The notes: a model not told the origin generated them from the letters alone. A stretch of DNA of 64,000 nt from Acetobacteraceae bacterium (GCA_020848935.1 JADLHF010000191.1:12082-76081); one strand, 5' to 3'; positions 3,118 through 63,893 are shown, counted from the first letter of the stretch. A program made the numbers and translations.

Positions 3118-3258
3118 GCAAGAAAGAATGTTCTTTTTTATAAAAAAGAACCAAAAAACTTTCATTCATTGATCGCGAGGCGGGCAGCGTGCGACCTCAT
3201 GAAACATGAGTGAAGTCTTTTTGCTTCTTTTTCTTCAGAAAAAGAAGGCCTTCCTTCC
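3118..3258 (-). repeat. AT-rich double-hairpin intergenic element, copy 1 (GTTC unit on the left, CTTCAG unit on the right)
   Basis: Left unit GCAAGAAAGAATG-GTTCTTTTTTATAAAAAAGAAC-CAAAAAACTTTCATTCATT, a variable centre, then right unit GTCTTTTTG-CTTCTTTTTCTTCAGAAAAAGAAG-GCCTTCCTTCC. It lies between the yicC start and the M20 peptidase stop. Confidence 0.9.
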
Positions 3259-3279
3259 CTTTTTCAACACCCGCACACC

Positions 3280-4380
3280 CTATATCCCGCGCGCCACCCG
3301 CTCCGCCAGCCGCATGAATTGCGGCACCGCCGCTTCCAGTTCCGCCAGCGCCAGGCTTTCGGCCGGGCAGTGTGCCTGGCCGATATCGCCGGGCCCGACG
3401 ATCACGCACGGCGCCAGGGCGCTCAGTTCCGAGGCATCGGTGCCGAACGGCGCGGTGATCGCCGGCTTGCCGGTTTCACCGCTGACCAGGCGGATCAGCG
3501 GGTGGTTGCTCGGCAGTTCCGGCGGCAAGCCTTCCGGCACCGCCGCCAGCGCCAGGCCGTGGCGGGCGGCGGAGGCGCGCACCCGGGCCATCACCGGCGC
3601 GGGGTCGATCCTGGCGGAATAGCGGAATTTCACCCGTGCCGTCGCCTTAGGCACGGTCATGTTCACCGGCGCGCCGTGGTTGTCGATGGTCAGGTTGAAG
3701 TCGCTGAACACCGGGTCGTAGGCGCTGTCGTGCCAGGCGGGATCGTCGCGCAGCATCTCGAAAATCGCCTTCATGTCGGCCGCGAAGCCGATCAGGTCCC
3801 AGTTGGCGTTGCGCCCCTTTCCGGTGGAGCTGTGCGCCTGCACCCCGGTGGCCACCGCGGTGATGGCGATGGAGCTGCGATGGCCGCGCACCGGGGTCAT
3901 CACCGTGGGCTCGGCCACCAGGATGGCGGCGGGGGCGGCGCGGCGGGCGAGCTGCGATTGCGCGGCGATCAGCCGGGCGCCGGCCTTGGTGGTTTCCTCG
4001 TCGGTGGTGATCAGCAGGGTCACCGGCACCGCCACGGCCCGCGCGGCCAGGATGCAGGCGGCCAGCGGACCCTTCATGTCGGTGCTGCCCAGCCCGTGCA
4101 GCCGCCCGTCGGCGATGCGCCCGTCCCAGGGATCGGTGGTCCAGCCGGTGTCCGGCACCGTGTCCATGTGGCCGCTGAACGCCAGCCCACCGGCGGCGCC
4201 GCGATGCGCCACCAGCGCCCGCTTGGCCACCCCGGCGGCGTCGGTGTAGTCCAGCCGCTCCACCTCGAAGCCGTCCAGCTCGCGCTCGATGCGGTCAGCC
4301 ACAGCGAGGTTGGAGACGAAGCTGCGGCTGTCGATGCGCACCAGGTCGGCGGCCAGCTGGACCACTTCGGCATGCGGCAT
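3280..4380 (-). CDS. M20 family metallopeptidase (ArgE/DapE-like deacylase)
   Basis: The C-terminal 366 aa of track ORF 3280..5619 begin at MPHAEVVQLAADLVRIDS. Motifs include GHMDTVP, GLGSTDMKG and TTDEE. The upstream part of the ORF is Ala/Gly/Arg junk overlapping the next gene. Confidence 0.8.
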   Translation of the reverse strand: MPHAEVVQLAADLVRIDSRSFVSNLAVADRIERELDGFEVERLDYTDAAGVAKRALVAHRGAAGGLAFSGHMDTVPDTGWTTDPWDGRIADGRLHGLGSTDMKGPLAACILAARAVAVPVTLLITTDEETTKAGARLIAAQSQLARRAAPAAILVAEPTVMTPVRGHRSSIAITAVATGVQAHSSTGKGRNANWDLIGFAADMKAIFEMLRDDPAWHDSAYDPVFSDFNLTIDNHGAPVNMTVPKATARVKFRYSARIDPAPVMARVRASAARHGLALAAVPEGLPPELPSNHPLIRLVSGETGKPAITAPFGTDASELSALAPCVIVGPGDIGQAHCPAESLALAELEAAVPQFMRLAERVARGI

Positions 4381-4403
4381 GTCACTCTCCCGGCGTTTGG
4401 CGC

Positions 4404-5543
4404 TCAGCCTCGCCGATCGCGGGCGCCAAGGCCAGGGCGCAGCGCCAGCGCCGCCGCCAGGGCCAGCGCCGCGTCGGTGGCATCGGCCGACCGGCCGGGC
4501 AGGCGGGTCTGCACCAGGCCGATCGCCAGCGCCAGCGCCACCACGGCCGCCGCGGCCGGCCGGAACCGCAACCCGGCGCGCACCGCCTGCCACAGCAGCC
4601 CGCCATACAGGAACACCTTCAGCAATGCCGCCTGCAGCCCCGCGGCATTCTCCCCGCCCAGCAGCGCGCCGAAGGGCAGCCAGCCGAACGGCCGCGCCCA
4701 GGGCAACAGGCGATAGGGTGCCAGCCCCTCGGCCAGCACCACCGCCAGCATCACCACCAGCAGCACAGGATCGACATGGCGCCACCCGCGCAGCAGCGCC
4801 CAGGCCGGCAGCGCCAGCAGCACCGCCAGCACCTCCGCCGGGGTCAGTACCCGCCCAATGATCGGCACCGCGGCGGCCAGCGTGCCCAGCATCATCGCCG
4901 CCGCCAACCCCGGGCGGCCCGGTGCTGCGGCCGCCAGCAGCCGGGCGGCCACCAGCCAGGCCCCGGCCAGGCGCAGCACCCGCACGGGATCGGCCAGCCA
5001 TGGCCCTTGCAGCGGCCGCAGACTGGCCAGCCACGCGCCCCGGTCGGTGGCGGGCAGATAGGGATACAGCCGATAGCCCAGCCACCCCGCCAGCAGCAGT
5101 GCGGCACCAAGGTCGCGCGGCGCGGGCAGCCGCCGCCGGCCGGGGCGCAGCACCACCCAGGCCAGCGCCCCCGCGCCGCCGCCGGCGGTGTTCAGCGCCA
5201 GGTCCCAGATACTGGCCACCCGCCCGGGGATATAAAGCTGCGCCGTCTCCATCGCCGCCGACAGCGCCGCGCACAGCAGGATGCCGCGCGGCAGGGCCAG
5301 CCAAGCCGCCCCTCGCCCGGCCGCCGCCAGCGCCAGGCCCAGCGGCATGTACAGCGCCAGGTTGGCCAGCAGGTCGCCGCGCCCCCCCTGCGGCGCCGCC
5401 AGCGCCATCCGCCATGCCTGCGCCAGCGTCACGCCCGGCGGCAGCGCCTGGACATGGAACGGGTACAGCGAGCCATAGGCGATGAACGCCGCCATCAGCC
5501 CGGCCAGCACCCAAGCCTGATGCGCCGCCCCGTCCCGCGCCAT
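4404..5543 (-). CDS. VanZ-like family integral membrane protein
   Basis: YGSLYPF...RGDLLANLALYMPLG...ETAQLYIPGRVASIWDLALNTAGGGAGA matches the VanZ-like pattern, followed by further hydrophobic segments. The start is uncertain: ATG at 5543, with alternatives at 5576 and 5624. Confidence 0.6.
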   Translation of the reverse strand: MARDGAAHQAWVLAGLMAAFIAYGSLYPFHVQALPPGVTLAQAWRMALAAPQGGRGDLLANLALYMPLGLALAAAGRGAAWLALPRGILLCAALSAAMETAQLYIPGRVASIWDLALNTAGGGAGALAWVVLRPGRRRLPAPRDLGAALLLAGWLGYRLYPYLPATDRGAWLASLRPLQGPWLADPVRVLRLAGAWLVAARLLAAAAPGRPGLAAAMMLGTLAAAVPIIGRVLTPAEVLAVLLALPAWALLRGWRHVDPVLLVVMLAVVLAEGLAPYRLLPWARPFGWLPFGALLGGENAAGLQAALLKVFLYGGLLWQAVRAGLRFRPAAAAVVALALAIGLVQTRLPGRSADATDAALALAAALALRPGLGARDRRG

Positions 5544-5617
5544 CCCATCCCTTTCCGCTCGGACAAGGTTGACCATTGCCCGCCCCTTGGCCAGCCTCCC
5601 GCCAACAGGAGGCCCGC

Positions 5618-8319: not shown

Positions 8320-9422
8320 AGCTATCCGACCTCCCCACCCCCTGCCTTGTGCTCGACCGCACCGTGCTGGCGCGCAACATCGACCGCATGGCCCAGGCGG
8401 TCGGCCGGCTCGGCGTGGCCCTGCGGCCGCACATGAAGACCGCCAAGTCGATCGACGTGGCCCGCATGGTGCTGGCCAACCATGCTGCCCCGCTTTCCGG
8501 CATCACCGTCTCCACCCTTGCGGAGGCGGAATACTTCGCGGCGCACGGGATCACCGACATCCTCTATGCCGTCGGCATCACGCCGCACAAGCTGGACCAG
8601 GTGGCCAAGCTGAACGCGGCCGGCGCCGAGGTGAAGGTCGTCACCGACGACCTGGACATGGCCCGCGCCATCGCCGCCCACCCCGGCCGCCACCACGCGC
8701 TGATCGAGATCGATTGCGGCGAGATGCGCGGCGGCATCCCGCCCGGCGACCCGCAACTTGAAGCCATCGGCGCGGCCCTCGGCGACCGCCTGCTGGGCAT
8801 CATGACGCATGCCGGCCATTCCTATGCCGGCCGCACGATTGCCGAAATGGCCGATATCGCCGAGGCCGAACGCAACGCCGCCCTTGCCGCGGCCCGCCGC
8901 CTGCGGGCCGCCGGCATGGCCTGCCCGATGGTCTCGGTGGGCTCCTCGCCCACCGCCCTGCATGCCCGCGCGCTGGGCGGCGTCACGGAAACCCGGCCCG
9001 GCGTCTATATGTTCGGCGACCTGTTCCAGGCCGAGATCGCCACCGTCGAACCCGACGGAATCGCGGTGACCGTCCTGGCCAGCGTGATCGGCCGCCGCCC
9101 GGCGGAACGGCGAATCGTCATCGACGCCGGCGGCATGGCATTGTCCAAGGACCGCGCCACCGAATCCGCGCCGCACGACTTCAAGTTCGGCCTGGTGTTG
9201 GACCAGGACGGCCGCCGCACCCTGGGAAACTCGCTGGTGGCGCGCGCCAACCAGGAACACGGCGTGGTCGATCTGGACACCACCATCGATTTCCGCATCG
9301 GCGACCGGGTGCGCGTGGCGCCCAACCATACCTGCATGACCTCGGCGGCGCATGACCGATACTATGTGGTCGATGGCGGGGACGAAGTGGTCGCCGTTTG
9401 GCCCAGGATAGGAGGATGGTAA
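8307..9422 (+). CDS. D-TA family PLP enzyme (D-threonine aldolase / D-serine deaminase-like, alanine racemase N-terminal fold)
   Basis: LPTPCLVLDRTVLARNI, the PLP-lysine context RPHMKTAKS, and ..VAPNHTCMT... The start is GTG at 8307 or GTG at 8316 (the latter a GTGA overlap with the M81 stop). Confidence 0.8.
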   Translation: MDAVKLSDLPTPCLVLDRTVLARNIDRMAQAVGRLGVALRPHMKTAKSIDVARMVLANHAAPLSGITVSTLAEAEYFAAHGITDILYAVGITPHKLDQVAKLNAAGAEVKVVTDDLDMARAIAAHPGRHHALIEIDCGEMRGGIPPGDPQLEAIGAALGDRLLGIMTHAGHSYAGRTIAEMADIAEAERNAALAAARRLRAAGMACPMVSVGSSPTALHARALGGVTETRPGVYMFGDLFQAEIATVEPDGIAVTVLASVIGRRPAERRIVIDAGGMALSKDRATESAPHDFKFGLVLDQDGRRTLGNSLVARANQEHGVVDLDTTIDFRIGDRVRVAPNHTCMTSAAHDRYYVVDGGDEVVAVWPRIGGW

Positions 9423-9583
9423 GAAAGGAAGATTTCTTTTTGTGAACAAAAAGAAACAAAAAAACTTCATTCAATCGTGTAATGCACCATCGAGCGACCC
9501 CGGCACCCTCCGCACCCGTTCAGCGAATGAGTAAAGTTTTTTTGCTTCTTTTTGTTCACAAAAAGAAGACCTTCCTTCCTTCC
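9420..9583. repeat. AT-rich double-hairpin element, copy 2 (both units GTGAAC type)
   Basis: TAAGAAAGGAAGA-TTTCTTTTTGTGAACAAAAAGAAA-CAAAAAAACTTCATTCA, centre, TTTTTTTG-CTTCTTTTTGTTCACAAAAAGAAG-ACCTTCCTTCCTTCC. It fills the whole gap between convergent stops (TAA 9420-9422, TAG 9583-9585). Confidence 0.92.
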
Positions 9584-10797
9584 TAACCTACGCGCCACTT
9601 CCAGAACTCCCCCCCCTCCCGCGTCATGAAGTTCGACAGCACCATGCGATGCACCTCGCTCGCCCCGTCCACCAGCCGCGCCTGTCGGGCGTAGCGGTAG
9701 ATCCACTCCACCGGCGTGTCCTTGGAGTACCCCAGCGCACCGAGCAGTTGCAGCGCGGTATCGGCGGCCTTGTGCAGCGCGTCGGCCACCACGATCTTGG
9801 CCATCGAGATTTCCTTGCGGGCGAAGTCGCCCTGGTCCAGCAGCCAGGCGGCCTTCATGGTCAGCAGGCGGCCGATCTCGATCTCCATCGCCGCCTGGCC
9901 GATCAGGGTCTGCACGCTCTCATGGTCGATCAGCCGGCCGCCGAAGCTGCGCCGCTTGACCACATGCTCCATGGCGATTTCCAGGCAGCGCCGCGCCAGC
10001 CCGGTCCAGCGCATGCAGTGGGTCAGGCGGGCCGGCCCGAGGCGGATCTGGGTCAGCTTCAGCCCGTCGCCCACTTCCATCAGCCGGTTCTCGTCGGGGA
10101 TCTCCAGCCCGTCGAACTCGATCTCGCAGTGCCCGCCGTGCTCCTCCGGCCCCATGATCTCGATGCGGCGGATGATGCGCCAGCCCGGCTGGTCGCGGTG
10201 GAACAGGAAGCTGGTCAGGCCGCGCCGCGCATCGGCCGAGGTGCGGGCGATCAGGATGAAGTGCTCGGCGGTTTCCGCCCCGGTGATGAACCACTTGCGG
10301 CCGCGGATCTTCCAGCCGGCGTTGGTGCGCACCGCCTCGGTGTTGGTCAGCGACGGGTCGCTGCCGCAGCCGCCGCCGTCCTCGTCCATCGGCTCGGTCA
10401 TGATGAAGCTGCTGTTCATGCGGCCGTCGATGACGGGTTGCAGCCACCAATCCTGCTGCGCCTGCGTCGCCACCTGCGCCATCACCCGCATGTTGCCGTC
10501 GTCCGGCGCCGAGCAGTTGAAGCACACCGGCCCGAAGATGGACCGGTTCATCTCCTCGTACAGCACCGCCTGGTCGGCCATCTTCAGCCCGCCGCCGCCG
10601 CGCGCCTTGGGCGATTGCAGCGCCCAGATGCCCATCGCGCGGGTTTCCTGGCGCAGCTCGGCCAACAGGCCGTGGCGGATGTTCTCATGCGCGTCATAGC
10701 TGGCCCGATCGGCCTCCAGCGGGATCAGCCGCTCATCCACGAAGCGGCGGATGGCCAGGCGCTTGGCCTCGATATCGGGGTCGATGGTGAACTGCAT
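9583..10797 (-). CDS. Acyl-CoA dehydrogenase family protein
   Basis: MQFTIDPDIEAKRLAIRRFVDE..., WFITGAE, and the C-terminal RLVDGASEVHRMV motif. I start at the ATG at 10795-10797, because the upstream 70 codons are Arg/Pro-rich. Confidence 0.85.
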   Translation of the reverse strand: MQFTIDPDIEAKRLAIRRFVDERLIPLEADRASYDAHENIRHGLLAELRQETRAMGIWALQSPKARGGGGLKMADQAVLYEEMNRSIFGPVCFNCSAPDDGNMRVMAQVATQAQQDWWLQPVIDGRMNSSFIMTEPMDEDGGGCGSDPSLTNTEAVRTNAGWKIRGRKWFITGAETAEHFILIARTSADARRGLTSFLFHRDQPGWRIIRRIEIMGPEEHGGHCEIEFDGLEIPDENRLMEVGDGLKLTQIRLGPARLTHCMRWTGLARRCLEIAMEHVVKRRSFGGRLIDHESVQTLIGQAAMEIEIGRLLTMKAAWLLDQGDFARKEISMAKIVVADALHKAADTALQLLGALGYSKDTPVEWIYRYARQARLVDGASEVHRMVLSNFMTREGGEFWKWRVG

Positions 10798-10880: not shown

Positions 10881-12086
10881 ATGAACGGGGCGGCACGAAT
10901 GCGCGCGGCATGGCGAAATGGCGTGCGGCTGGACGGGCCGGCGGCGCGCGCCGCGCTGGCGCTGGTGCTGGCTGCCGGAGTGTTCGTGGCCTGGCGGATC
11001 GGCGCACGCCAGTGGCCGGTGATCGCCAGCGGCAACAAGGTGTTCAGCGACCTGTTCGCGCATTGGAGCTACGCCGGCTTCGCCGCCGCCCATCCCGGCC
11101 CGGCAATCTACGACCGCGAGGCGATGTCCGCCTTCCAGCACGGCCTGTTCGACGGACGGTTGCAGGGCCTGCCATTCGCCTATCCGCCACCCTATCTGTT
11201 CCTGGTGCTGCCGCTGGCGGCATTCACCGTCTGGCACGCCGCCCTGCTGTGGGGCGCCGCCTCACTGGCCGCCTTCGCCGCCGCCATCGCCCCCCGGCCG
11301 TGGCGCGCCGATCCCCTGGCGCCCTCCTTGCTGGTGCTGGCGATCCTGGCGCCATCGACCATCGTCTGCCTGGGCTATGGCCAGAACGGCCTGCTGATCG
11401 CGGCCCTGCTGGCCGGCGGGCTGCGCCTGCTGCCGACACGGCCGGGCTGGGGCGGCGTGCTGCTGGCGCTGGCCTGCGTGAAGCCGCAAATGGCCGTGCT
11501 GCTGCCGGTGGCGCTGCTGGCGGGGCGGCAATGGCGCGCCATCGCCGCCGCAGTGGCAACCGGGCTGCTGTTGGTGTTGGCCAGTGCCGCCTGGATCGGC
11601 CCGCTGGCCTGGATCGACTGGATCGCCGCGCTGCGCGAACAGGGCGATTACGCCGCGCGCTGGATCGGCCCCCACCGCCAGCCCACCGTCGCGGCCACAA
11701 TGACGCTGTTCGGCATGGACCGCGCCAGTGGCCTGGCGGTGCAGGCCGCTGTAACCACGGCCGTGGTCCTTGGCGTGGTCGCCGCCTGGCGCCGCGGCCC
11801 CAGCGCCGCCGCCGCCGGCGCCGTCTTGGCCGGCGCATTGCTGGCAACACCCTATGGCTTCAACTACGATCTGCCGGTGGCAACCGCCGCGGTGGCCGCA
11901 CTCGTCGCCGGCCGCCGCCGCGTCTCCTGGCCGGAAGCGGCGGTGATGGCGGCCACCCTGCTGCTGCCAATGGTGCTGCACCTGACCAGCCGCTTCTTCT
12001 GGACCGCGCCGGTGACTCTGGCGGCACTCTTCGTCCTGTGCGTGTGGCGCGCATGCAGTGAGCAAGAAAGACTCTTCTTTTTCTGA
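10881..12086 (+). CDS. DUF2029 / GT87-like polytopic membrane glycosyltransferase-like protein
   Basis: The protein is multi-TM and hydrophobic, with ..LACVKPQMAVLLP.. and FNYDL segments typical of GT87-like mannosyltransferase relatives. The last ~8 codons (SEQERLFFF*) and the stop lie inside repeat copy 3. Confidence 0.6.
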   Translation: MNGAARMRAAWRNGVRLDGPAARAALALVLAAGVFVAWRIGARQWPVIASGNKVFSDLFAHWSYAGFAAAHPGPAIYDREAMSAFQHGLFDGRLQGLPFAYPPPYLFLVLPLAAFTVWHAALLWGAASLAAFAAAIAPRPWRADPLAPSLLVLAILAPSTIVCLGYGQNGLLIAALLAGGLRLLPTRPGWGGVLLALACVKPQMAVLLPVALLAGRQWRAIAAAVATGLLLVLASAAWIGPLAWIDWIAALREQGDYAARWIGPHRQPTVAATMTLFGMDRASGLAVQAAVTTAVVLGVVAAWRRGPSAAAAGAVLAGALLATPYGFNYDLPVATAAVAALVAGRRRVSWPEAAVMAATLLLPMVLHLTSRFFWTAPVTLAALFVLCVWRACSEQERLFFF

Positions 12087-12205
12087 AGAAAAAGAAGCAA
12101 AAATACTTCATCCCATATCCTTTGCGCGGCACCCTGGTGCCCCATGCTCCAATGAATGAAAGTTTTTTGGTTCTTTTTTTCAAAAAAGAACACACTTCCT
12201 ACCCT
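12063..12205 (+). repeat. AT-rich double-hairpin element, copy 3 (CTGAAG unit on the left, GTTC unit on the right)
   Basis: CAAGAAAGACT-CTTCTTTTTCTGAAGAAAAAGAAG-CAAAAATACTTCA, centre, GAATGAAAGTTTTTTG-GTTCTTTTTTTCAAAAAAGAAC-ACACTTCCTACCC. It contains the stop of the GT87-like gene (TGA in the loop) and the xerC stop (TAG at 12199-12201). Confidence 0.92.
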
Positions 12206-13113
12206 CTTGGATGCGTCCGCCGCCAAACGTCCATCAAATGCGCGGTGTCAACGGCGGTGTAGCGCTGGGTCGTGGACAGGCTGGCATGGCCCAACAGGTC
12301 CTGGATGGTGCGCAAATCCGCCCCTCCGGCCAGCAGGTGGGTGGCGAAGGAATGGCGCAGCGCGTGCGGCGTGGCATGCTCCGGCAGGCCGTTCTGCTGG
12401 CGGAACACCCGCAGCGTCCGCTGCGCCACCCCGGGGTTCAACCGCTCGCCGCGCACGCCGACGAATAGCGGGGCCGCGGGTTCCGCGCGGGCGGGGTGGT
12501 GGCGCAGCCAGGCGGCGATGGCGGCGCGCACCGCCGGCAGCACCGGCACGATGCGCGGCTTGGACCCCTTGCCGACCACCCGCAGCATGGCATCCGTGCC
12601 CTCGCGCGGCGCCTCGGCCACGGTCAGCGCCAGCGCCTCGGCGATGCGCAGCCCGCTGCCGTACAGCAGGCTGAACAGCGCCGTGTCGCGCGCCTGGGTG
12701 AAGGCCGCCTGGCTCGCCTCGCCGATATCCTGTGCCACCGCCAAGGCCTCGCGCGGCGTCAGCGCATGCGGCAGTGGCGGCTTGGCGCGCGGGGTTGCCA
12801 GCAGGGCGATCTGGGCATTGGCCACGCCATGCCGGCGCGCCAGGAAGCGGAAGAAGCTGCGCACCGCGGCCAGATGGCGCGCCCGCGTGCTGTTGCCGGC
12901 GCCCTCGCCGGCCTTCCAGGCCAGCCAGGCGCGCAGGTCGGTTGCCCGCAGCGCCGCCAGCGCAACCAGGTCCGGCTCGGCGCCGAGATGGCGCGTGATG
13001 AACCCCAGAAAGCCCGCAGTGTCGCGGCCATAGGCCTCGACGGTCAGCGGTGAGGCGCGGCGCTCATGCGCCAGCCAGGCGAGGAAGCCGGCGCGGGCCT
13101 CCGCGGCCATCAT
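12199..13113 (-). CDS. xerC: Tyrosine recombinase XerC
   Basis: GSGLRIAEALAL, HALRHSFATHLL and LLGHASLSTTQRYT carry the R..HxxR..Y catalytic set. A DUF484 gene lies immediately upstream, as is typical for xerC. I start at MMAAEARAGFLAWL. Confidence 0.85.
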   Translation of the reverse strand: MMAAEARAGFLAWLAHERRASPLTVEAYGRDTAGFLGFITRHLGAEPDLVALAALRATDLRAWLAWKAGEGAGNSTRARHLAAVRSFFRFLARRHGVANAQIALLATPRAKPPLPHALTPREALAVAQDIGEASQAAFTQARDTALFSLLYGSGLRIAEALALTVAEAPREGTDAMLRVVGKGSKPRIVPVLPAVRAAIAAWLRHHPARAEPAAPLFVGVRGERLNPGVAQRTLRVFRQQNGLPEHATPHALRHSFATHLLAGGADLRTIQDLLGHASLSTTQRYTAVDTAHLMDVWRRTHPRG

Positions 13114-17489: not shown

Positions 17490-18899
17490 GTGACCGACAC
17501 GCCCGACCTGCGCAACACAACATCCAACGCCCAATGGGGCGGCCGCTTCGCCGCCGGTCCCTCGGTGGTGATGCAGGAGATAAATGCCTCCATCGGCTTC
17601 GACCGCAAGATGTGGCGCCAGGATATCCAGGGCTCGCTCGCCCACGCCGCCATGCTGGTGCGCATCGGCATCCTGACGGCAAAGGACGGATCGGACATCC
17701 AATCCGGCCTGGAAGCCATCGCCGCCGAGATCGACGCCGGAAAATTCCCCTTCGACGAAGCCCTCGAAGACATCCACATGAACATCGAGGCCCGGCTCAC
17801 CGAGCGCATCGGCGATGCCGGCCGCCGCCTGCACACCGGGCGCAGCCGCAACGACCAGGTCGCCACCGATTTCCGCCTCTGGGTCCGCGACGCCATCGAC
17901 GGGCTCGATGCCCAGCTCGCCGACGTCATGACCGCCCTGGCCACCCGCGCCGCCCAGCACGCCGCCGACCCGATGCCCGGCTTCACCCACCTGCAAACCG
18001 CCCAGCCCGTCACTTTCGGCCACCATCTCCTGGCCTATGTCGAGATGCTGTCGCGCGACCGTGGCCGGCTGGCCGATTGCCGCCGCCGCCTCAACGAATG
18101 CCCGCTCGGCTCCGCCGCCCTGGCCGGCACCTCCTTCCCGCTCGACCGCGAGATGACCGCCCGCGCCCTGGGCTTCGACCGTCCCACCGCCAACTCGCTG
18201 GATGGCGTGTCCGACCGCGACTTCGCGCTGGAATTCCTCTCCGCCGCCGCCATCTCCGCCATGCACATGTCGCGCCTGGCAGAGGAAATGATCATCTGGT
18301 GCAGCGCGCCCTACCGCTTCATCCGCCTGTCCGACGCCTTCACCACCGGCAGCTCGATCATGCCGCAAAAGCGCAACCCCGACGCCGCCGAGCTGGTCCG
18401 CGCCAAGACCGGCCGCATCAACGGCGCCCTGGTCGGCCTGCTCACCGTCATGAAGGGCCTGCCGCTCGCCTATGCCAAGGACATGCAGGAAGACAAGGAA
18501 CAGGTCTTCGATGCCGCCGAGGCCTGGGCGCTGTGCCTCGCCGCCACCGCCGGCCAGGTGCGCGACATGACCCCGAACCTGGAGCGCATGCGCGAATTCG
18601 CCGGCTCCGGCTTCGCCACCGCCACCGACCTGGCCGACTGGCTGGTCCGCGTGCTGAAGCTGCCGTTCCGCACCGCCCACCACGTCACCGGCCGCCTGGT
18701 CGCCAAGGCCGAAGCCCGCAACATCGACCTCGCCGAACTCACCCTGGCCGACATGCAGGCCGAAGAGCCCGGCATCACCCAGGACATCTTCGGCGTGCTC
18801 ACCGTGGATGCCTCGGTCGCCTCCCGCTCGGTCTATGGCGGCACCGCGCCGTCCAATGTCGCGGCGCAGGCGCAAAGGTGGTTGGAGAAGCTGAAGTGA
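17490..18899 (+). CDS. argH: Argininosuccinate lyase
   Basis: [10 protein letters not shown]..., [11 protein letters not shown], and the fumarate-lyase signature [16 protein letters not shown]. Confidence 0.93.
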
Positions 18900-19052
18900 A
18901 GACTCTTCTTTTTGTGAACAAAAAGAAGCAAAAAAACTTCACCCATTCAGCGGTGGCGGAAGCTGCGTGCGCCATGCCCACCCAGGGCACCACCACCCAA
19001 CGAATAAAGTTTTTTTGCTTCTTTTTGTTCACAAAAAGAAGCCTTGTCTTTC
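18893..19052. repeat. AT-rich double-hairpin element, copy 5 (both units GTGAAC type)
   Basis: ..GAAGTGAAGACT-CTTCTTTTTGTGAACAAAAAGAAG-CAAAAAAACTTCA, centre, AAGTTTTTTTG-CTTCTTTTTGTTCACAAAAAGAAG-CCTTGTCTTTC. The argH TGA (18897-18899) lies in the left end. Confidence 0.9.
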
Positions 19053-19159
19053 TATTGTTGCTCGCCCTGGCCCTCCCCGCCTGCGGCCGCAAGGGCCCGC
19101 CCAACCCCCCGGGCCCGGCGGACAAGATAACCTTCCCCCGCAGCTACCCGGCGCGCTGA
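19025..19159 (+). CDS. Putative small lipoprotein (LptM/YifL-like), start inferred
   Basis: The frame reads (M)FTKRSLVFLLLLALALPACGRKGPPNPPGPADKITFPRSYPAR*, a signal peptide plus lipobox-like LPAC followed by GRKGP. It sits after argH, where small lipoproteins are common. The only in-frame start candidates are TTG (19025 or 19055), and both the start and the basic n-region lie inside repeat copy 5. Confidence 0.35.
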   Translation: MFTKRSLVFLLLLALALPACGRKGPPNPPGPADKITFPRSYPAR

Positions 19160-23332: not shown

Positions 23333-23367
23333 TGGCCACCTCATTCAGGATTGCCTCGAATCTGCCT

Positions 23368-23401
23368 TCGTATATGATGAATCTTAATATTCGTCATACG
23401 A
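23368..23401. promoter_or_regulatory. Imperfect AT-rich inverted repeat upstream of the RND operon (candidate operator or promoter element)
   Basis: TCGTATATGATGAAT-cttaat-ATTCGTCATACGA lies 36-70 bp upstream of the adaptor gene start, in the only AT-rich non-repeat stretch of this intergenic region. Confidence 0.4.
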
Positions 23402-45350: not shown

Positions 45351-46538
45351 ATGCCCCGCATTGCGCGCCCCGACATCATCCGCCCGCAACGCCTGTGGGC
45401 GGCGCTGCTGGCGGCGACGTTGCTGAACCTGCCGCTGGGCTCGGTGTATTCGTTCAGCGTGTTCCTGCGGCCGATCGAGCTGGACCTGGCAATCCCGCGC
45501 TCGGCGCTGTCGCTGGTGTTCGGGATGGCGACGGTGGGATTCACCGTGGGCTCGGTGGGGGCGGCGTTTCTGTATCGACTGGCGCCGGCGGCGGTGCTGG
45601 TGTTTGCCGCTGCCGCCTGGGCCGCCATGGGGATCGGGGTGGCGGCGATGGCGAGCGGGATGGCGCAGCTTCTGCTCGGCTACGGCGTGGCGTTCGGCAC
45701 CGGTGGGGGGGTGGCCTATATCCTGTTGCAGCAGGGGGTGAACCTTCTGCTGCGGCGGCGGCAGGGGCTGGTGAACGGCTATATCGTCAGCCTGTATCCG
45801 CTGGGGGCGATGATCGCGACGCCGGTCTTCCACTGGTGCAACGAGAATTTCGGCTGGCGCACCACCCTGGCCGGGCTGGCGGTGGTGCTGGTGGTGTTCG
45901 GGGCCGTGGCGGCATGGCTGGTGCATCACGGCGGGGCGCGGCTGGCGGCGCCGGCGGGGAGCGCGCCGGTTGTCCCGGCGCGGCTGGGGCTGACATTCGT
46001 CAAGCTTGCCGCGACGTTCTTCCTGGCGGCCTCGGCGGGGCTGATGGTGCTGAGCCAGGCGCGGGAGATCGTGGCCGCCTATGGCGGGGCGGTGGCGCTG
46101 GCGGTGGGGGCCACCACCGGGATCACCGCGGCGATCGCATTGGCGCGGGTGAGCGGCGGGTGGCTGGTGGATCGCTTCGCGGTGCCGCATGTGATGTGCT
46201 CGGCGCATGGGCTGGCGCTGGGCGGGGCGGTGCTGCTGACGGCGTATCCCGCACCGGTGACCGCGGTGCTGGGGCTGGGGATGGTGGGGATGGGCTATGG
46301 CTTCATATCCGGCTCGACGGCCGGGAGCATCGCGCTGTACTGGCCAGTGGCGGATTTCGGGCGGGTGGCGGGGCGGACCTATATCGCCTGGTGCGCGGCG
46401 GCGGTGGGGCTGCCGGTGCTGGCGGGGTATCTGTTCGACCTGACCCAAGGCTATGCGGCGGCGGTGGTGATCGCGGGAGCGGGCAACCTGGCGGGCATGG
46501 CGGTGGCTTTGAGCTTGCCACGGAAAGACTCAAGGTAA
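45351..46538 (+). CDS. MFS transporter (oxalate/formate antiporter-like, OFA family)
   Basis: It starts MPRIARPD... and has LNLPLGSVYSFSVFL plus about 12 hydrophobic segments. This is the 3' part of track ORF 43134..46538. The TAA forms the first 3 nt of repeat copy 10. Confidence 0.8.
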   Translation: MPRIARPDIIRPQRLWAALLAATLLNLPLGSVYSFSVFLRPIELDLAIPRSALSLVFGMATVGFTVGSVGAAFLYRLAPAAVLVFAAAAWAAMGIGVAAMASGMAQLLLGYGVAFGTGGGVAYILLQQGVNLLLRRRQGLVNGYIVSLYPLGAMIATPVFHWCNENFGWRTTLAGLAVVLVVFGAVAAWLVHHGGARLAAPAGSAPVVPARLGLTFVKLAATFFLAASAGLMVLSQAREIVAAYGGAVALAVGATTGITAAIALARVSGGWLVDRFAVPHVMCSAHGLALGGAVLLTAYPAPVTAVLGLGMVGMGYGFISGSTAGSIALYWPVADFGRVAGRTYIAWCAAAVGLPVLAGYLFDLTQGYAAAVVIAGAGNLAGMAVALSLPRKDSR

Positions 46539-46648
46539 GAAAGATCTTCTTTTTCTGAAGAAAAAGAAGCAAAAAGACTTTTTATTCATTAGGATAGATC
46601 TTATTATAGAAAGTTTTTTGGTTCTTTTTTTCAAAAAAGAACACTTTC

Positions 46649-46652
<4 letters not shown>
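46536..46652 (+). repeat. AT-rich double-hairpin element, copy 10 (CTGAAG unit on the left, GTTC unit on the right)
   Basis: TAAGAAAGAT-CTTCTTTTTCTGAAGAAAAAGAAG-CAAAAAGACTTTTTATTCATT, a 17-nt centre, AGAAAGTTTTTTG-GTTCTTTTTTTCAAAAAAGAAC-ACTTTCTTACTC. It spans exactly from the MFS TAA to the ABC exporter TAA (46649-46651). Confidence 0.93.
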
Positions 46653-48382
<1,730 letters not shown>

Positions 48383-48471: not shown

Positions 48472-48960
48472 CTATTCATCGCGCGGGTGGGGGGCAGGCG
48501 TCAAGCTATGGCGATTATTGCGATATCGGAACATTATAGGCATGCGTCGGCATGATCGGCCGAGGGGCGAAAAAGCGGCGGGTGGGGCGCGGGCGGCGGT
48601 TGCCGGCGGCGCGGGTGTGCGGGTGGCGTGGGGATGGGGGATCGCGGTGCGGCCCGCGCCGGGCGCGTGGGGGCGGCGGGCGGGCGCAGGGGCGCCGGCG
48701 CGCTGGGCGTGGCGGGGCTGGCGGGGCTGGGTGGTGCGCCGGGCCTGGCGGGAATGGGGGGTGTGGCGCAGCGGCGCGGGACGCGCGGCGCGTGTGGGCG
48801 GGGGCGGCGGCAGGGTGCCCGCGCGCCATTGCCCGAGCAGGGCTTCCAGGCGGAGGAAGATGCGGTCGAGCAGGGTGTGGAGCAGGGCGAGCAAGGCAGC
48901 GCGCGCGGCTTCGCCGAGGGTGTCCAGGATGGGGGTTGCGGGGGCGGTCTGGGATTTCAT
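48472..48960 (-). CDS. Hypothetical proline/arginine-rich protein (paralogue B, possibly truncated)
   Basis: The N-terminus has ...LLALLHTLLDRIFLRLEALLGQWRAGTLPPPPP, which resembles RLARLLTSLAAGQAP in paralogue A. Promoter geometry is the same. The 3' end of the ORF reads through the conserved palindrome, so the true stop and the coding status are uncertain. Confidence 0.4.
   Translation of the reverse strand: MKSQTAPATPILDTLGEAARAALLALLHTLLDRIFLRLEALLGQWRAGTLPPPPPTRAARPAPLRHTPHSRQARRTTQPRQPRHAQRAGAPAPARRPHAPGAGRTAIPHPHATRTPAPPATAARAPPAAFSPLGRSCRRMPIMFRYRNNRHSLTPAPHPRDE
48514..48537. promoter_or_regulatory. AT-rich palindrome, copy B
   Basis: ATTATTGCGATATCGGAACATTAT matches copy A at 21 of 24 positions. 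It lies ~132 nt upstream of the ABC exporter start (48382), between that gene and paralogue B. Confidence 0.5.
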
Positions 48961-48997: not shown

Positions 48998-49034
48998 GAG
49001 GGGGGGTGGGGATTTTTTCTGGGGTTGGGTGGGG

Positions 49035-49268
49035 GAGGGAAGGTCTTCTTTTTGTGAACAAAAAGAAGCAAAAAAACTTTATTCATTGGTTGGGGTGGCG
49101 ATTGCGTTGGGTCGGTGGCGCGATGGTGAGGGGGGTTTGCCAGTATATCTGGCGGTTTTGGTGGGGCTACCCCTCACCCCGGCCCTCTCCCCCAAGGGGA
49201 GAGGGGGCTTTCTTAACGAATGAATTTTTTTTGCTTCTGTTTGTTCACAAAAAGAAGAGTCTTGCTTA
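49035..49268. repeat. AT-rich double-hairpin element, copy 11, with an enlarged centre carrying a second, GC-rich hairpin repeat
   Basis: GAGGGAAGGT-CTTCTTTTTGTGAACAAAAAGAAG-CAAAAAAACTTTATTCATT, a ~130-bp centre containing CCCTCACCCCGGCCCTCTCCCCCAAGGGGAGAGGGGGC, then ACGAATGAATTTTTTTTG-CTTCTGTTTGTTCACAAAAAGAAG-AGTCTTGCTTACC. It contains the permease TAA (49266-49268). Confidence 0.88.
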
Positions 49269-50213
49269 CCGATATTCGATCCTGGGGTCGATATAGGCAT
49301 ACAGCACATCCACCAGCACGTTCATCAGGACGTAGATCACCAGCACGAACAGGATGCAGCCTTGGATCAGCGGGTAGTCGCGCACGCCGATGGCTTGGAT
49401 CAGCAGGCGGCCGATGCCGGGGTAGGTGAAGACGGCTTCGGTGACCACGGTGCCGCCGACGAAGGCGGCCAGCATCAGGCCGACGATGGTGACGAAGGGC
49501 AGCAGGGCGTTGCGCATGACGTGGCGGCCGACGACGTCGCGTTCGCGCAGGCCTTTGCTGCGGGCGGTGCGGACGTAGTCGGCTTTCAGTTCGCCGAGCA
49601 GGGAGGCGCGCAGGAAGCGGGCGAAGATGCCGGAGACGTAGGTGCCCAGGGTCAGCGCCGGGAGGAGGAGGTTTTCCAGCGCGCCGACGGGGTCTTCGAA
49701 GAAGGGGATATAGGTGGAGACGGAGGGGAGCCAGTGGAGTTGGACGCCGAACAGCAGGATCAGCAGGATGCCGAGCCAGAAGGTGGGCACGCCGAGGGCG
49801 AGCGCGCTCCAGCCGCTGAGCATGCGGTCGATCAGGCTTCCGGGGACCAGGGCGCTGACGACGGCGACGGGGACGCCGAGGACGAGGCCGACGAGGATGG
49901 CGGCGAGGCCGAGCTGGATGGTGGCGGGGACGCGGGTGAGGATCAGGTCGAGCACGGGCTCGCGGCTTTGGATGGACTCGCCGAGATCGCCGAGGACGGC
50001 GCCTGACAGCCAGGACCAGTATTGTTCGTAGAACGGCCGGTCGAGGCCGAGGCGCTGGATGGTATCGGCGATCTGCTCGGGGGTGGCGTTCTCGCCGACG
50101 ATGGCGCCGACCGGGGAGCCGGGGACGGCATAGACCATGGCCCAGATGCCGATCGAGGCGAGGAAGAGGACCGGGACGAGTTGGGCGAGGCGGCGGAGGA
50201 TGTAGCTGGTCAT
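49266..50213 (-). CDS. ABC transporter permease (DppB/OppB-like, binding-protein-dependent family)
   Basis: MTSYILRRLAQLVPVLFLASIGIWAMVYAVPGSPV... and the EAA-loop region YVRTARSKGLRERDVVGRHVMRNAL. Confidence 0.88.
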   Translation of the reverse strand: MTSYILRRLAQLVPVLFLASIGIWAMVYAVPGSPVGAIVGENATPEQIADTIQRLGLDRPFYEQYWSWLSGAVLGDLGESIQSREPVLDLILTRVPATIQLGLAAILVGLVLGVPVAVVSALVPGSLIDRMLSGWSALALGVPTFWLGILLILLFGVQLHWLPSVSTYIPFFEDPVGALENLLLPALTLGTYVSGIFARFLRASLLGELKADYVRTARSKGLRERDVVGRHVMRNALLPFVTIVGLMLAAFVGGTVVTEAVFTYPGIGRLLIQAIGVRDYPLIQGCILFVLVIYVLMNVLVDVLYAYIDPRIEYR

Positions 50214-50360: not shown

Positions 50361-50421
50361 TTATGGATGAAGTTTTTTTGCTTCTTTTTGTTCACAAAAA
50401 GAAGACTCCTTCCTGCCTTCA
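50361..50421. repeat. Single right-hand unit of the AT-rich family, copy 12
   Basis: TTATGGATGAAGTTTTTTTG-CTTCTTTTTGTTCACAAAAAGAAG-ACTCCTTCCTGCCTTCA. The upstream permease TGA (50419-50421) lies in its end. Confidence 0.85.
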
Positions 50422-57396: not shown

Positions 57397-59438
57397 TGTA
57401 CGCCATCGGGATCGATGTCGGTGGGACCTTCACCGACCTGGTGGCGGTGGATGCCGCCGGCACGGTGACGCTGGCCAAAGCCGCCTCCACCCCCGAGGAC
57501 CAGTCGCTGGGGGTGATGGCGGGGTTGGGCCGGCTGGCGGAAGCGCTCGGCGTTCCGCAAGCCGCCATGCTGGCCGCGACCCTGCGCATCGTGCATGGCA
57601 CCACGGTGGCCACCAACGCGCTGTTGGAACGCAAGGGGGCGCGCGTCGGGCTGCTGACCACCGAGGGCCATCGCGACATCATCGAGATGCGCGAGGGGCT
57701 GAAGGATGACCGCTACAATCTGCGCCAGGCGCCGCCGGAACAGCTGGTGCCGCGCCATCTGCGGCTGGGGGTGCGCGAGCGCATCCGGCCCGATGGGCGG
57801 ATCGAGATCCCGCTCGACCGCGCCTCGCTGGATGCCGCCATCGCGGTGCTGCGCGACGAGCGGGTCGATTCGGTGGCGATCTGCACCCTGCATGCCTGGC
57901 GCGACGGGCGGCATGAGCGGGCGATGGCCGAGGCGGTGCGGGCCGCGATGCCCGGTGCCTATGTCTGCCTGTCCTGCGAGGTGCTGCCGCAGATCAAGGA
58001 ATACGACCGGGTCTGCACCACGGTGGTCAACGCCTATGTCGGACCGGCGCTGCAACGCTACCTCACCCGGCTGGAGGAGCGCCTGCGCGCCGGCGGCTAT
58101 GGCGGGCCGGTGCTGATCATCCAGTCCCATGGCGGTGTGGCGACCATCGCGGACGCGGTGGCGTTGTCGGCCGGCGCGGTGCTGTCCGGCCCGGCCGGCG
58201 GGGTGGCCGGCAGCTGCCATGCCGCCAGCCTGATCGGGCATGGCGACCTGATCCCGTTCGACATGGGCGGCACCTCGACCGATATCTCGCTGGTGGTGGG
58301 CGGGCAGGCCACGATTGCCTCGGACCGGCGGCTGGCCGGGCAGCGGGTGGCGTTGCAGAGCCTGGACATCGCCAGCATCGGTGCCGGCGGCGGCTCGATC
58401 GCGCGCGTCGATGCCGGGGGGGTGCTGCATGTCGGGCCGGAAAGCGCGGGGGCGCAGCCGGGGCCGGCGTGCTACGGGCGCGGCGGCGTGGACGCGACGG
58501 TGACCGATGCCAACCTGGTGCTGGGCTTTCTCGATCCCGATAATTTTCTTGGCGGGCGGACGAAGCTCGATGTCGCGTCGGCCGTGGCGGCGGTGGACCG
58601 GGTGGCGGGGCGGCTGGGGGTGGACCGGATGGCGGCGGCCGAGGGCATCCACCGCATCATCAATACCCGCATGGCCGAGGGCATCCGCCTGGTTTCGGTG
58701 CGCCGAGGGGTTGATCCGCGCCGCTTCGCCATCCTGTCGTTCGGGGGGGCGGCGGCGCTGCATGTCACCGACGTGGCGCGCCAGCTCGACCTGAAGCGGG
58801 TGATCGTGCCGCGCGTGGCGGCGGTGCTGTCGGCCTGGGGGATGCTGGCGTCGGACCTGCGCTACGAGATCGCCCGCACCCATATCGGCGATGCCAGCCG
58901 GCTGGACGCCGCAGGGCTGCGCGCCGCCTGGGCCGGGATGGAGGAGGATGGCCGCGCCCGCCTGGCCGCCGCGCAGTTCGACGGCCCGGTGCGGACCCAC
59001 CGTTCGGCCGACATGCGCTATGGCGAGCAGATTTTCGAAGTGGCCGTGCCGCTGGACGGCATCGACTTCGCCCGGCCGGACCTGACTTCGGCGCTGGCCG
59101 ACGCCTTCCACCGCCAGCACGAGGCGCTCTACACCTACGCCATGCCCGACCAGGAGGCGGTGCTGGTCAATGCCCGCGTGGCCGTGGTGGGAGGGCTGCC
59201 CGCCCTGCCGCGCGAACCCGCGCTGCAGGGCGGGCCGGACGCCGTGGCGCGGGGGATGCGGCGCCTCTACCTCGGGGCATGGCGCGAGGTGGAGGTGTTC
59301 GACTTCGACAGCCTGGCGCCGGGACAGGGGATCGTCGGGCCGGCGGTGGTGGAATCGGCCACGACCACGGTGCTGCTGCGCGACGGGGACCGTGCACGGG
59401 TGACCGGGTTTGGATGGCTGGATGTGGCGGTAGGGTAA
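57396..59438 (+). CDS. Hydantoinase A / oxoprolinase family protein
   Basis: MYAIGIDVGGTFTDLV, GTTVATNALLERKGA, FDMGGTSTDISL and ..YGEQIFEV... The TAA forms the first 3 nt of repeat copy 13. Confidence 0.9.
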   Translation: MYAIGIDVGGTFTDLVAVDAAGTVTLAKAASTPEDQSLGVMAGLGRLAEALGVPQAAMLAATLRIVHGTTVATNALLERKGARVGLLTTEGHRDIIEMREGLKDDRYNLRQAPPEQLVPRHLRLGVRERIRPDGRIEIPLDRASLDAAIAVLRDERVDSVAICTLHAWRDGRHERAMAEAVRAAMPGAYVCLSCEVLPQIKEYDRVCTTVVNAYVGPALQRYLTRLEERLRAGGYGGPVLIIQSHGGVATIADAVALSAGAVLSGPAGGVAGSCHAASLIGHGDLIPFDMGGTSTDISLVVGGQATIASDRRLAGQRVALQSLDIASIGAGGGSIARVDAGGVLHVGPESAGAQPGPACYGRGGVDATVTDANLVLGFLDPDNFLGGRTKLDVASAVAAVDRVAGRLGVDRMAAAEGIHRIINTRMAEGIRLVSVRRGVDPRRFAILSFGGAAALHVTDVARQLDLKRVIVPRVAAVLSAWGMLASDLRYEIARTHIGDASRLDAAGLRAAWAGMEEDGRARLAAAQFDGPVRTHRSADMRYGEQIFEVAVPLDGIDFARPDLTSALADAFHRQHEALYTYAMPDQEAVLVNARVAVVGGLPALPREPALQGGPDAVARGMRRLYLGAWREVEVFDFDSLAPGQGIVGPAVVESATTTVLLRDGDRARVTGFGWLDVAVG

Positions 59439-59563
59439 GAAAGGCCTTCTTTTTCTGAAGAAAAAGAAGCAAAAAGACTTTCAATCGTTAAGAAAGAATG
59501 GCATTTTTCTTAGTATTGAAAGTTTTTTGGTTCTTTTTTTCAAAAAAGAACTCCTTCCTACCC
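59436..59563 (+). repeat. AT-rich double-hairpin element, copy 13 (CTGAAG unit on the left, GTTC unit on the right)
   Basis: TAAGAAAGGC-CTTCTTTTTCTGAAGAAAAAGAAG-CAAAAAGACTTTCAATCG, a centre with its own hairpin TAAGAAAGAATGGCATTTTTCTTA, then TTGAAAGTTTTTTG-GTTCTTTTTTTCAAAAAAGAAC-TCCTTCCTACCC. Confidence 0.92.
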
Positions 59564-59582
59564 TACCCCTTCGGCATCGGGA

Positions 59583-62094: not shown

Positions 62095-62220
62095 GGGTGG
62101 GAAGGGGGTGTTCTTTTTTGAAAAAAAGAACCAAAAAACTTTCAGTCATAAGAGTAGGCGGGAGCAATCTTATTATCAAAAAGTCTTTTTGCTTCTTTTT
62201 CTTCAGAAAAAGAAGATCTA
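62095..62220 (-). repeat. AT-rich double-hairpin element, copy 14 (GTTC unit on the left, CTTCAG unit on the right)
   Basis: GGGTGGGAAGGGGGT-GTTCTTTTTTGAAAAAAAGAAC-CAAAAAACTTTCAGTCA, centre, AAAAGTCTTTTTG-CTTCTTTTTCTTCAGAAAAAGAAG-ATCTA. It contains the pyrD TAG (62218-62220) and starts 5 nt from the HAD gene start. Confidence 0.9.
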
Positions 62221-63276: not shown

Positions 63277-63319
63277 GGGCCGCTATGTGCCGGGATTGCG
63301 GCGGCTTGGGAAGCCGGGG

Positions 63320-63562
63320 CTATCCCGCCAGCGCGGTGGTGGCCACGTCGCCGGTCTCGCCGGCGCTGGCGACATACAGCAGCCGGCCACCGTCGCTGGC
63401 GGAAACCAGCATCATGTCGCCCACCGCCAGCATGTCGGCGGCGTCGTTGAAGAAGCCCGACGATGCGGCCCGGTCGAGCGCGCAGTCCCGCGCACGGTAG
63501 TGCCACAGGGTGAAACCCTGGGCGTAGGCGAGGACGGAAAGATTGCGAATGGCGAAGTCCAT
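63320..63562 (-). CDS. Conserved small hypothetical protein upstream of pyrD
   Basis: MDFAIRNLSVLAYAQGFTLWHYRA...GDMMLVSASDGG. AGGAG lies 6 nt upstream of the ATG, and GC3 is high. I did not name a family with confidence. Confidence 0.6.
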   Translation of the reverse strand: MDFAIRNLSVLAYAQGFTLWHYRARDCALDRAASSGFFNDAADMLAVGDMMLVSASDGGRLLYVASAGETGDVATTALAG

Positions 63563-63581
63563 GGGGCAGCTCCTGGTCAAC

Positions 63582-63614
63582 AAAAAAGCCGCGCTTCCCG
63601 ATGGGAGGCGCGGC
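63582..63614 (-). terminator. Rho-independent terminator-like hairpin (minus strand)
   Basis: Minus strand GCCGCGCCTCCCATCGGGAAGCGCGGC followed by TTTTTT. It lies downstream of the partial gene ending at 63903 and only ~12 nt upstream of the SD of the small gene. Confidence 0.55.
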
Positions 63615-63750
63615 CGGAGAAGGCGGACGGTGCCGGCGGAGCAGATATGGCTGCGCCGCCGATGGAGGGAGGTTAGTGGGGGGAGAGGAGGCTGGTCAAG
63701 GATTTTTTTCCTTTTTCAGTTAATTTTATCGGCGAGAGGTTGGCAGGGGG

Positions 63751-63893
63751 AGAAGGAAGGAAGGGTGTTCTTTTTTGGAAAAAAGAACCAAAAAACTTTT
63801 ATTCCCTGGGGTGTGGGGCAGGCGGGTGCCGCGCATTGAACAATGGCGAAGTCTTTTTGCTTCTTTTTCTTCAGAAAAAGAAGTCCTTCCTTC
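63751..63893 (-). repeat. AT-rich double-hairpin element, copy 15 (GTTC unit on the left, CTTCAG unit on the right)
   Basis: AGAAGGAAGGAAGGGT-GTTCTTTTTTGGAAAAAAGAAC-CAAAAAACTTTTATTCC, centre, GGCGAAGTCTTTTTG-CTTCTTTTTCTTCAGAAAAAGAAG-TCCTTCCTTC. Confidence 0.92.

Follow-up and report, generated by a model that had tools for sequence, protein, structure and literature searches.

The window analysed here, a 64 kb stretch of DNA from an Acetobacteraceae bacterium (GCA_020848935.1, JADLHF010000191.1:12082–76081) with a G+C content of 66–75%, carries 15 copies (about one every 4 kb) of an AT-rich, self-complementary element of 120–240 bp, most of which are bounded by inverted copies of one ~50-nt unit. 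With modest confidence, we assign these elements to a single Acetobacteraceae-specific family of non-coding, self-complementary dispersed repeats that resemble REP doublets forming hairpins (REPINs; REP, repetitive extragenic palindrome) and bacterial interspersed mosaic elements (BIMEs), that are copied in trans and that are likely to serve as transcription terminators. The family is of interest for an AT-rich 50-nt end that is conserved family-wide in GC-rich genomes, for terminator design, for its embedded stop codon and for a missing mobiliser.

A sequence-only reading of the window had described about 28 units at 15 loci, and a profile built from ten units recovers 28 units, precisely at those loci. 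With up to three mismatches allowed, the GTTC hairpin pattern occurs at nine sites in the window and the CTTC pattern at 13 distinct sites (22 hits when both strands are counted); shuffled sequences are expected to give 0.00 in either case. The elements can also fold, as had been proposed, into one long hairpin, with z scores of −3.9 to −7.2 relative to dinucleotide shuffles. The further statement that they are the sole AT-rich islands does not hold, as the window contains six other, smaller islands, including those at 33911, 35945 and 48514. That the family had not previously been named is borne out by the absence of an Rfam family and of any description in the searchable literature. Rfam returned no match on the window at the gathering score and only chance-level hits on one copy (E2, see below) at E-values up to 10; no description came up in the literature, whether it was searched by topic or with strings of the sequence, and the family is mentioned neither in a Gluconobacter oxydans RNA-seq paper nor in a survey of GTAG/CGTC REPs. 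The RepRanger survey (2025) placed an Acetobacteraceae species, Lichenicola cladoniae, first among 16 taxa for extragenic palindromes, the sequence of which was not stated.

The unit consists of three parts: a purine end of two to three N-A-R-G repeats, an A/T hairpin of 9–10 bp with a TGAA loop and the segment CAAAAAA(A)CTTT. The family consensus is AARGNAAGNN-CTTCTTTTTSTGAASAAAAAGAAG-CAAAAAAACTTT. The stem (S-TTCTTTTT-S) surrounds the TGAA loop and its closing pair swaps between G:C and C:G. The three hairpin types distinguished previously are therefore all present as variants of a single design rather than as separate designs, GTGAAC and CTGAAG differing by a compensatory change of the closing pair. 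In a position profile of 217 units, the hairpin is preceded by a 2-nt spacer and, before it, the N-A-R-G repeats, with conservation ending at about −13; on the 3′ side, C-A-A-A-A-A-(A)-C-T-T-T is present at frequencies of 75–100% and fades by +20. The profile, with NARG repeats 5′ and CAAAAAAC 3′ of the hairpin, contains no GTAG or CGTC tag. Adjacent units are paired head-to-head in 75 of 77 cases with a median gap of 40 nt, and the two units of a pair are inverted with their loops and flanks included, as opposed to being direct repeats. A full copy thus runs from the purine end through the first hairpin (H1), an A-tract, a copy-specific centre, a T-tract and the second hairpin (H2) to the pyrimidine end. 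The exemplar is the full element E13, which lies between convergent hydantoinase A and substrate-binding protein (SBP) genes and has the following parts.

59433–59564: E13, whole element
59436–59445, plus strand: purine end TAAGAAAGGC; the TAA stop codon of the gene is 59436–59438
59446–59469, plus strand: hairpin H1, CTTCTTTTTC-TGAA-GAAAAAGAAG
59470–59529: core, with A-tract CAAAAAGAC, copy-specific central hairpin and T-tract GTTTTTTG
59530–59551, plus strand: hairpin H2, GTTCTTTTT-TTCA-AAAAAGAAC
59552–59563, plus strand: pyrimidine end TCCTTCCTACCC

The segment C-A(5–7)-C follows the first hairpin at a frequency above 90% and its complement precedes the second. The centre varies between copies, and within each copy its two halves are complementary: real centres fold at −0.37 kcal/mol/nt compared with −0.29 for two-copy chimeras (p = 6e-8). 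The A-tract, self-complementary centre and T-tract together give the core the layout of a bidirectional Rho-independent terminator, and the 5′ arm of H2 (CUUCUUUUU) is U-rich and extends the U-tract. The outer ends have a variable number of NARG repeats and no sharp terminus. Within one copy the two ends are complementary at 6.6 of 14 positions, only weakly above the 5.7 given by the family consensus, so that pairing of the ends is not the cause of their conservation.

A covariance model built from 15 units of the window gave 208 matches in 93 loci, and covariation was assessed on the best 150 of these. Stem cells are paired in 99.7% of cases, with double (compensatory) changes in 91 cells at four of the ten pairs; none of 500 shuffles reaches the observed level and no slid register comes close. 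Hairpin variants include GTCC/GGAC, CTGC/GCAG and CTCC/GGAG. Variation within the stem is limited to the base and the closing pair and the T/A run is invariant, which indicates that the sequence is constrained besides pairing. At orthologous sites the units are kept far better than their surroundings. Between loci L089 and L096 they are ~98% identical, with flanks of ~78% identity. At the GT87/xerC junction of the window and of L121 and L123, two of three related 22-kb loci centred on priA (the third being L122), the units are ~100% identical and the centre can barely be aligned, with PriA proteins that are 84–87% identical. Near-identical units around scrambled centres imply that the ends are under purifying selection or a constraint common to all of these genomes. 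This pattern points to selection on the ends and not to the neutral decay of a miniature inverted-repeat transposable element (MITE), as judged from these alignments.

The consensus is kept almost base for base across the whole family Acetobacteraceae, which the sequence-only reading had overlooked. A scan of one genome per species with the pattern TTCTTTTT-N(2-8)-AAAAAGAAS-CAAAAA gave at least 117 loci. Among the matches listed, almost all are from Acetobacteraceae, the carriers including Acidiphilium rubrum, Acidocella, Gluconacetobacter liquefaciens, G. tumulicola, Roseomonas sp. GC11, Pseudoroseomonas aestuarii, Rhodovastum, Endosaccharibacter trunci and many metagenome-assembled genomes (MAGs); the few matches from Clostridia and Bacteroidota are single and lie in AT-rich genomes. 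The asymmetric composite of a CTGAAG and a GTTC unit, of which the window was correctly said to hold four copies in one orientation (12063, 23444, 46536 and 59436) and three in the other (3118, 62095 and 63751), is found with identical hairpins in G. liquefaciens and on plasmids of Pseudoroseomonas cervicalis. A BLAST search against plasmids matched two Pseudoroseomonas plasmids, the low-complexity filter probably masking the hairpins. High-GC contigs of IMG/VR contain 218 units in 0.83 Mb. The window itself belongs to an uncultured member of the Acetobacteraceae; its PriA matches a protein from a MAG at 100% identity. Density differs widely between sequences, from none per 50 kb to one per 4 kb: there are 15 elements in the window, six in L121, three each in L122 and L123 and none in 50 kb of P. 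cervicalis plasmid. The family appears to be specific to Acetobacteraceae and undescribed.

Genes were called by a GC-frame method and the calls were checked with Pfam. Mapped against start and stop codons, the copies fall on the 3′ sides of genes. Seven of the eight convergent junctions in the window are occupied (56% in all high-GC loci), compared with seven of ~27 tandem junctions (22%) and none of the eight divergent ones (9%). The copies in the window besides E13 are as follows.

3115–3260: E1, full, GTTC unit on the left and CTGAAG unit on the right; tandem junction, 3′ of an M20 peptidase gene (stop 3280, minus strand) and upstream of yicC
9420–9581: E2, full, GTGAAC-type hairpins on both sides; convergent genes, with stops TAA 9420–9422 and TAG 9583–9585 at its two ends
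12061–12206: E3, full, CTGAAG and GTTC; convergent GT87 and xerC genes, with the GT87 stop TGA 12084–12086 in a hairpin loop; orthologous copies in L121 and L123
16706–16850: E4, full, GTGAAC and GTTC; convergent priA (stop 16703) and AhpC-like (stop 16846) genes
18892–19054: E5, full, GTGAAC on both sides; convergent argininosuccinate lyase and acrB-like genes
23441–23584: E6, full, CTGAAG and GTTC; tandem junction, upstream of the AT-rich promoter region of an hlyD/acrB operon
29771–29837: E7, abnormal pair in which the purine ends meet mid-element, T-tract on the left and A-tract on the right; convergent genes with stops 29755 and 29843
35110–35252: E8, full; tandem junction, with an aldo/keto reductase open reading frame (ORF) ending in the first hairpin (TGA 35131–35133)
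39560–39614: E9, minimal, one degenerate hairpin with purine and pyrimidine ends kept; adjoins an amidase stop (39610)
46533–46655: E10, full, CTGAAG and GTTC; convergent major facilitator superfamily (MFS) gene (TAA 46536–46538, within the element end) and ATP-binding cassette (ABC) transporter gene (stop 46649)
49032–49270: E11, full, centre of ~130 bp with an extra GC-rich palindrome; adjoins a permease stop (49266)
50363–50417, minus strand: E12, internally deleted, one unit and the remnant AAGAAC-TCTTCCCTCC, T-tract and central hairpin gone; between two permease genes of a single ABC operon
62095–62216: E14, full, GTTC and CTGAAG; tandem junction, adjoins a dihydroorotate dehydrogenase stop (62218)
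63752–63896: E15, full, GTTC and CTGAAG; right-hand neighbour past the end of the window

Both E9 and E12 arose by deletion. The claim that every copy is intergenic holds to the extent that all 28 units lie outside ORFs or at their extreme ends; two ORFs, those ending in E3 and E8, have their stop codons within the elements. The acyl-CoA dehydrogenase by E2 has the same C-terminus as in relatives, so that E2 adjoins a native stop; L079, an 85%-identical relative without E8, has a different aldo/keto reductase C-terminus. At several convergent pairs the whole intergenic region is the element. In the centre of E11 (49100–49215), the palindrome CCCTCTCCCCCAAGGGGAGAGGG resembles a second hairpin that is nested within E11 and unrelated to it; no other copy of it was found by a pattern search in which the loop length was set wrongly. 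The 45-residue gene call of a public assembly in the ybaB/recR junction of L121 (4407–4544) lies wholly within an element, and elements probably give rise to such spurious small ORF annotations.

Elements lie most often 0–9 nt from the stop codon and their hairpins 7–8 or 11 nt from it, so that the stop codon, as TAAG or TAGG, keeps the register of the NARG repeats. Of the stops that adjoin elements 37% are TAA, compared with 14% of those elsewhere (p = 3e-8). These distances bear on a translation-linked role, in which the stop codon lies in a purine-rich motif resembling a Shine–Dalgarno (SD) sequence and the hairpin 7–12 nt further on stalls or holds terminating ribosomes, or in which the long hairpin draws the stop and the next start codon together and translational coupling is thereby kept despite the insertion. 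The register agrees with such a role, as does the orientation of solo units, which turn the purine end toward the incoming gene in 28 of 35 informative cases and the opposite way in seven, and downstream starts can lie 0–11 nt past the pyrimidine end without an SD sequence of their own. In E. coli, REPs that lie up to 15 nt from a stop codon affect translation. REPs no more than 15 nt from a stop codon are discussed in PMC12306157. Since many copies lie 20–50 nt from the stop, and since the two ends of one copy are only weakly more complementary than the consensus, we consider this role improbable.

The concentration of strong AT islands between convergent genes in DNA of 70% G+C would also suit an element that acts at the DNA level for the host, with AT palindromes that bind, or are extruded for, nucleoid or topology proteins and relieve supercoiling between converging genes; the near-invariant stem likewise suggests sequence-specific recognition beyond pairing. 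Gyrase and IHF bind to the BIMEs of E. coli, and in alphaproteobacteria the AT-rich DNA found where transcribed genes end is a target of GapR. The covarying stem base and centres point instead to a single-strand fold, and long stretches of related replicons lack the family, which together leave this explanation with a low probability.

We favour a role of the core in transcription termination. Of the A/T runs of at least 5 nt in the window, 84 of 96 lie within elements, which make up 3.1% of the sequence, so that the window has practically no other U-tract terminators. If the organism has U-tract terminators, they are these elements. T-tract scores are 4.4–5.7 and d-scores of the central hairpins straddle the E. 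coli threshold; the outer hairpin with the pyrimidine end was tried as a terminator in its own right and rejected with a score far below threshold. In support of this role, a canonical GC hairpin with a U-tract occupies a junction of L122 where relatives carry an element, and the operon-internal E12 has lost precisely the T-tract core. The core most likely terminates transcription in both directions and/or stabilises the 3′ end, a proposal that draws on anatomy and position.

In the mechanism that we envisage, a trans-acting factor would read the conserved ends and copy whole elements to new sites, now or formerly, and copies would survive downstream of genes only. There, the A-tract, hairpin and U-tract core would halt transcription in both directions, the distal U-rich arm CUUCUUUUU would lengthen the U-tract and the fully paired, exonuclease-resistant 3′ end would protect the mRNA. 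Operon-internal copies would tend toward deletion derivatives without the T-tract core. The outer hairpins and NARG ends could be recognition sites for copying, could act on terminating ribosomes or could bind topology proteins.

Several observations weigh against a role in termination. The central hairpins are long, irregular and AU-rich or weak at the base, and several fall below the E. coli terminator threshold. Full copies lie between genes that are usually co-transcribed (ybaB–recR in L121 and TAL–DUF484 in L122) with the next start 0–11 nt away, where a strong terminator would be harmful. In E7 and other pairs that are joined by their purine ends, no hairpin is followed by a T-tract. The 50 kb of P. 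cervicalis plasmid contain neither a copy nor an A/T run of at least 6 nt, from which it follows that the family is not needed for termination in that lineage. Finally, termination alone does not account for the outer hairpins and purine ends.

Separately, convergent stops lie 3–45 nt apart with no hairpin or T-run between them at 38129–38174 in the window and at 5137–5141 in L121; these genomes thus tolerate converging genes that lack a recognisable terminator.

Whole elements were evidently duplicated, as centres are common to copies at different loci: on the OZ240673 chromosome such centres are 90–96% identical over 26–41 nt, and centres are shared between copies on two P. cervicalis plasmids. 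The closest relatives are ~85% identical, which renders intergenic DNA unalignable, and the comparison was therefore restricted to gene-to-gene junctions. Copies differ in presence between relatives at the same junctions, in agreement with the mobility read from the window alone. The TAL/DUF484 junction is empty in the window (a 22-nt spacer), filled exactly from stop to start in L122 and occupied by half an element in L121; the filled/empty pair, a single comparison, is compatible with duplication of TGA at a GTGA stop/start overlap. The priA 3′ junction carries GTGAAC and GTTC units in the window, GTTC and CTGAAG units in the opposite orientation in L121 and L123, and a plain GC-rich hairpin with a U-tract instead of an element in L122. 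The TAL/DUF484 junction of L123 holds an unrelated 139-bp insert (9125–9265, ends CTAGTGTCC...GGACACTAG), which may be another small mobile element. In L012 (3723–6513) and L050 (4092–6470), flanks that are 93% identical enclose a 2.5-kb block of different genes, with units of the AT-rich family at both borders; the repeats may serve as recombination points where they border such variable blocks and thereby guide recombination.

The sequence-only reading had called the family a MITE/REP hybrid. The dense family and its REP- and MITE-like architecture are real, while neither a target-site duplication nor an autonomous copy nor a gene for mobilisation came to light. As stated previously, the window encodes no transposase or REP-associated tyrosine transposase (RAYT) detectable by Pfam among the called genes scanned, which exclude a few short low-scoring calls and the 13.2–14.5 kb stretch. 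Three results count against the favoured explanation on the side of copying: no consistent direct repeat surrounds the 15 copies in the window; inverted units 0.4–4 kb apart in ~2 Mb of element-bearing DNA enclose no transposase that could mark an autonomous copy or parent insertion sequence (IS), the enclosed genes being a cold-shock gene, ordinary genes or phage tail genes; and a further 1.1 Mb (~2 Mb in all) yielded no second RAYT. The lone RAYT (L057, 2587–3126), tried as a mobiliser of the kind that the earlier reading had proposed to look for, was rejected, as it is flanked by GC-rich GTAG REPs of its own and not by AT-rich units. That Acetobacteraceae MAG locus (L057, 2512–3172) encodes a protein 50% identical to E. 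coli RayT between inverted GTAG palindromes (GTAGGGTGGGGTGCTCTTCCGCACCCCACCC), a classical REP/RAYT pair that coexists with the AT-rich family.

The same data allow a classical MITE to be weighed, that is, a selfish, non-autonomous IS derivative without host function, tolerated behind genes and bound by a transposase at its ~50-bp terminal inverted repeats (TIRs). Small, non-coding elements with such repeats in many copies, the wide variation in copy number, presence/absence at the same junction among relatives, subfamilies with linked variants and centres shared within a genome all fit this description, and the TAA and TAG stops at element ends could reflect a TA-rich target. It accounts poorly for the lack of a transposase or autonomous copy between inverted units in ~2 Mb and of a consistent target duplication, for frayed NARG ends in place of a sharp terminus, for a centre that decays between ends which hardly change from genus to genus or at orthologous sites, and for covarying hairpin stems. 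We regard a pure MITE as unlikely, if the least so of the alternatives to termination by copied repeats.

The elements have most in common with the RAYT-mobilised REPs, REPINs and BIMEs of E. coli and Pseudomonas. These are likewise short palindromic units, mostly arranged as inverted doublets in which one long hairpin can form; they lie outside genes, preferentially at gene 3′ ends and convergent junctions, number hundreds or more per genome and are long-lived in a lineage, with singlets as decay products; and roles as terminators, mRNA stabilisers and gyrase sites have been proposed for them. The present units differ in being AT-rich in a 70% G+C genome, in their length of ~50 nt, in their fixed A/T tracts, in the lack of a GTAG/CGTC tag, in a consensus common to a whole family as opposed to one species or genus and in the absence of a cognate RAYT with the same units in ~2 Mb. 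Correia elements, the MITEs of Neisseria, are similar as non-coding elements of 100–160 bp with inverted ends that are present or absent between strains and can terminate transcription and change the expression of neighbours; their TIRs are sharp and 26 bp long, TA is duplicated and the interior is conserved, whereas the present family has a variable interior, frayed NARG ends and no duplication seen. Bidirectional Rho-independent terminators share the core of A-tract, hairpin and T-tract, the position directly after stops and between convergent genes, and the extended U-rich tail; ordinary Rho-independent terminators do not form a repeat family, have GC-rich stems and lack the flanking AT hairpins and the purine and pyrimidine ends. 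Integron attC sites and the Vibrio VCRs, too, are imperfect palindromes directly after a stop codon in which the ends are conserved and the centre varies, but the present family has no cassette array, single orientation, integrase or core-site motifs and its neighbours are housekeeping genes on both strands. In the IS200/IS605 palindromes, the left and right hairpins have the same orientation and the target is a fixed tetra- or pentanucleotide, unlike the inverted units described here. The elements are thus in kind with REPs, REPINs and BIMEs and with terminator-forming MITEs, and the family itself is apparently new.

Inverted pairs of DNA uptake sequences (DUS, Neisseriaceae; USS, Pasteurellaceae) are a further parallel, in that a family-conserved motif often forms terminator hairpins at gene ends. 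Accumulation of the present units by biased uptake, with inverted pairs doubling as terminators, would be in line with the family-wide conservation of the motif, the inverted pairs at gene ends and a copy number that, extrapolated from local density, may run to thousands per genome. The known signals are 9–12 nt and also occur in genes; a conserved unit of ~50 nt is far above that length, the units here are strictly extragenic and densities differ enormously between related genomes. An origin as uptake sequences is, in our judgement, very improbable.

Beyond copying in trans as such, we entertain the rather doubtful proposition that a dedicated, family-conserved protein, neither a RAYT nor a classical transposase, reads the ~50-nt ends, which would be why they are nearly invariant across the family, and copies the elements to stop codons. 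If true, this would represent a new replicator–host partnership that provides genes with ready-made two-way terminators, and in some cases with the stop codon as well, in which the long hairpin may hold the stop and the next start adjacent, so that the element is tolerated inside operons. If the favoured explanation is true, one repeat family would define most transcription-unit ends in some Acetobacteraceae, which would let operon ends be called by a simple rule, would allow spurious small ORFs inside elements to be flagged and would offer compact two-way terminator parts for the engineering of acetic acid bacteria. Repeat ends that are conserved far more strongly than adjacent genes would also make a tractable evolutionary model.

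Other features of the window were noted. The GC skew turns from negative to positive near 38 kb, where the predominant coding strand changes, and this is not necessarily a replication landmark. An AT-rich region with internal dyad symmetry (23358–23440) adjoins E6 just upstream of the hlyD/acrB-like efflux operon and is probably its promoter/operator region. Two small AT-rich islands unrelated to the family (35945–35989 and 48514–48543) contain the perfect palindrome TTATTACGATATCGTAATA and the similar ATTATTGCGATATCGGAAC, respectively, and may be operator sites for one regulator.

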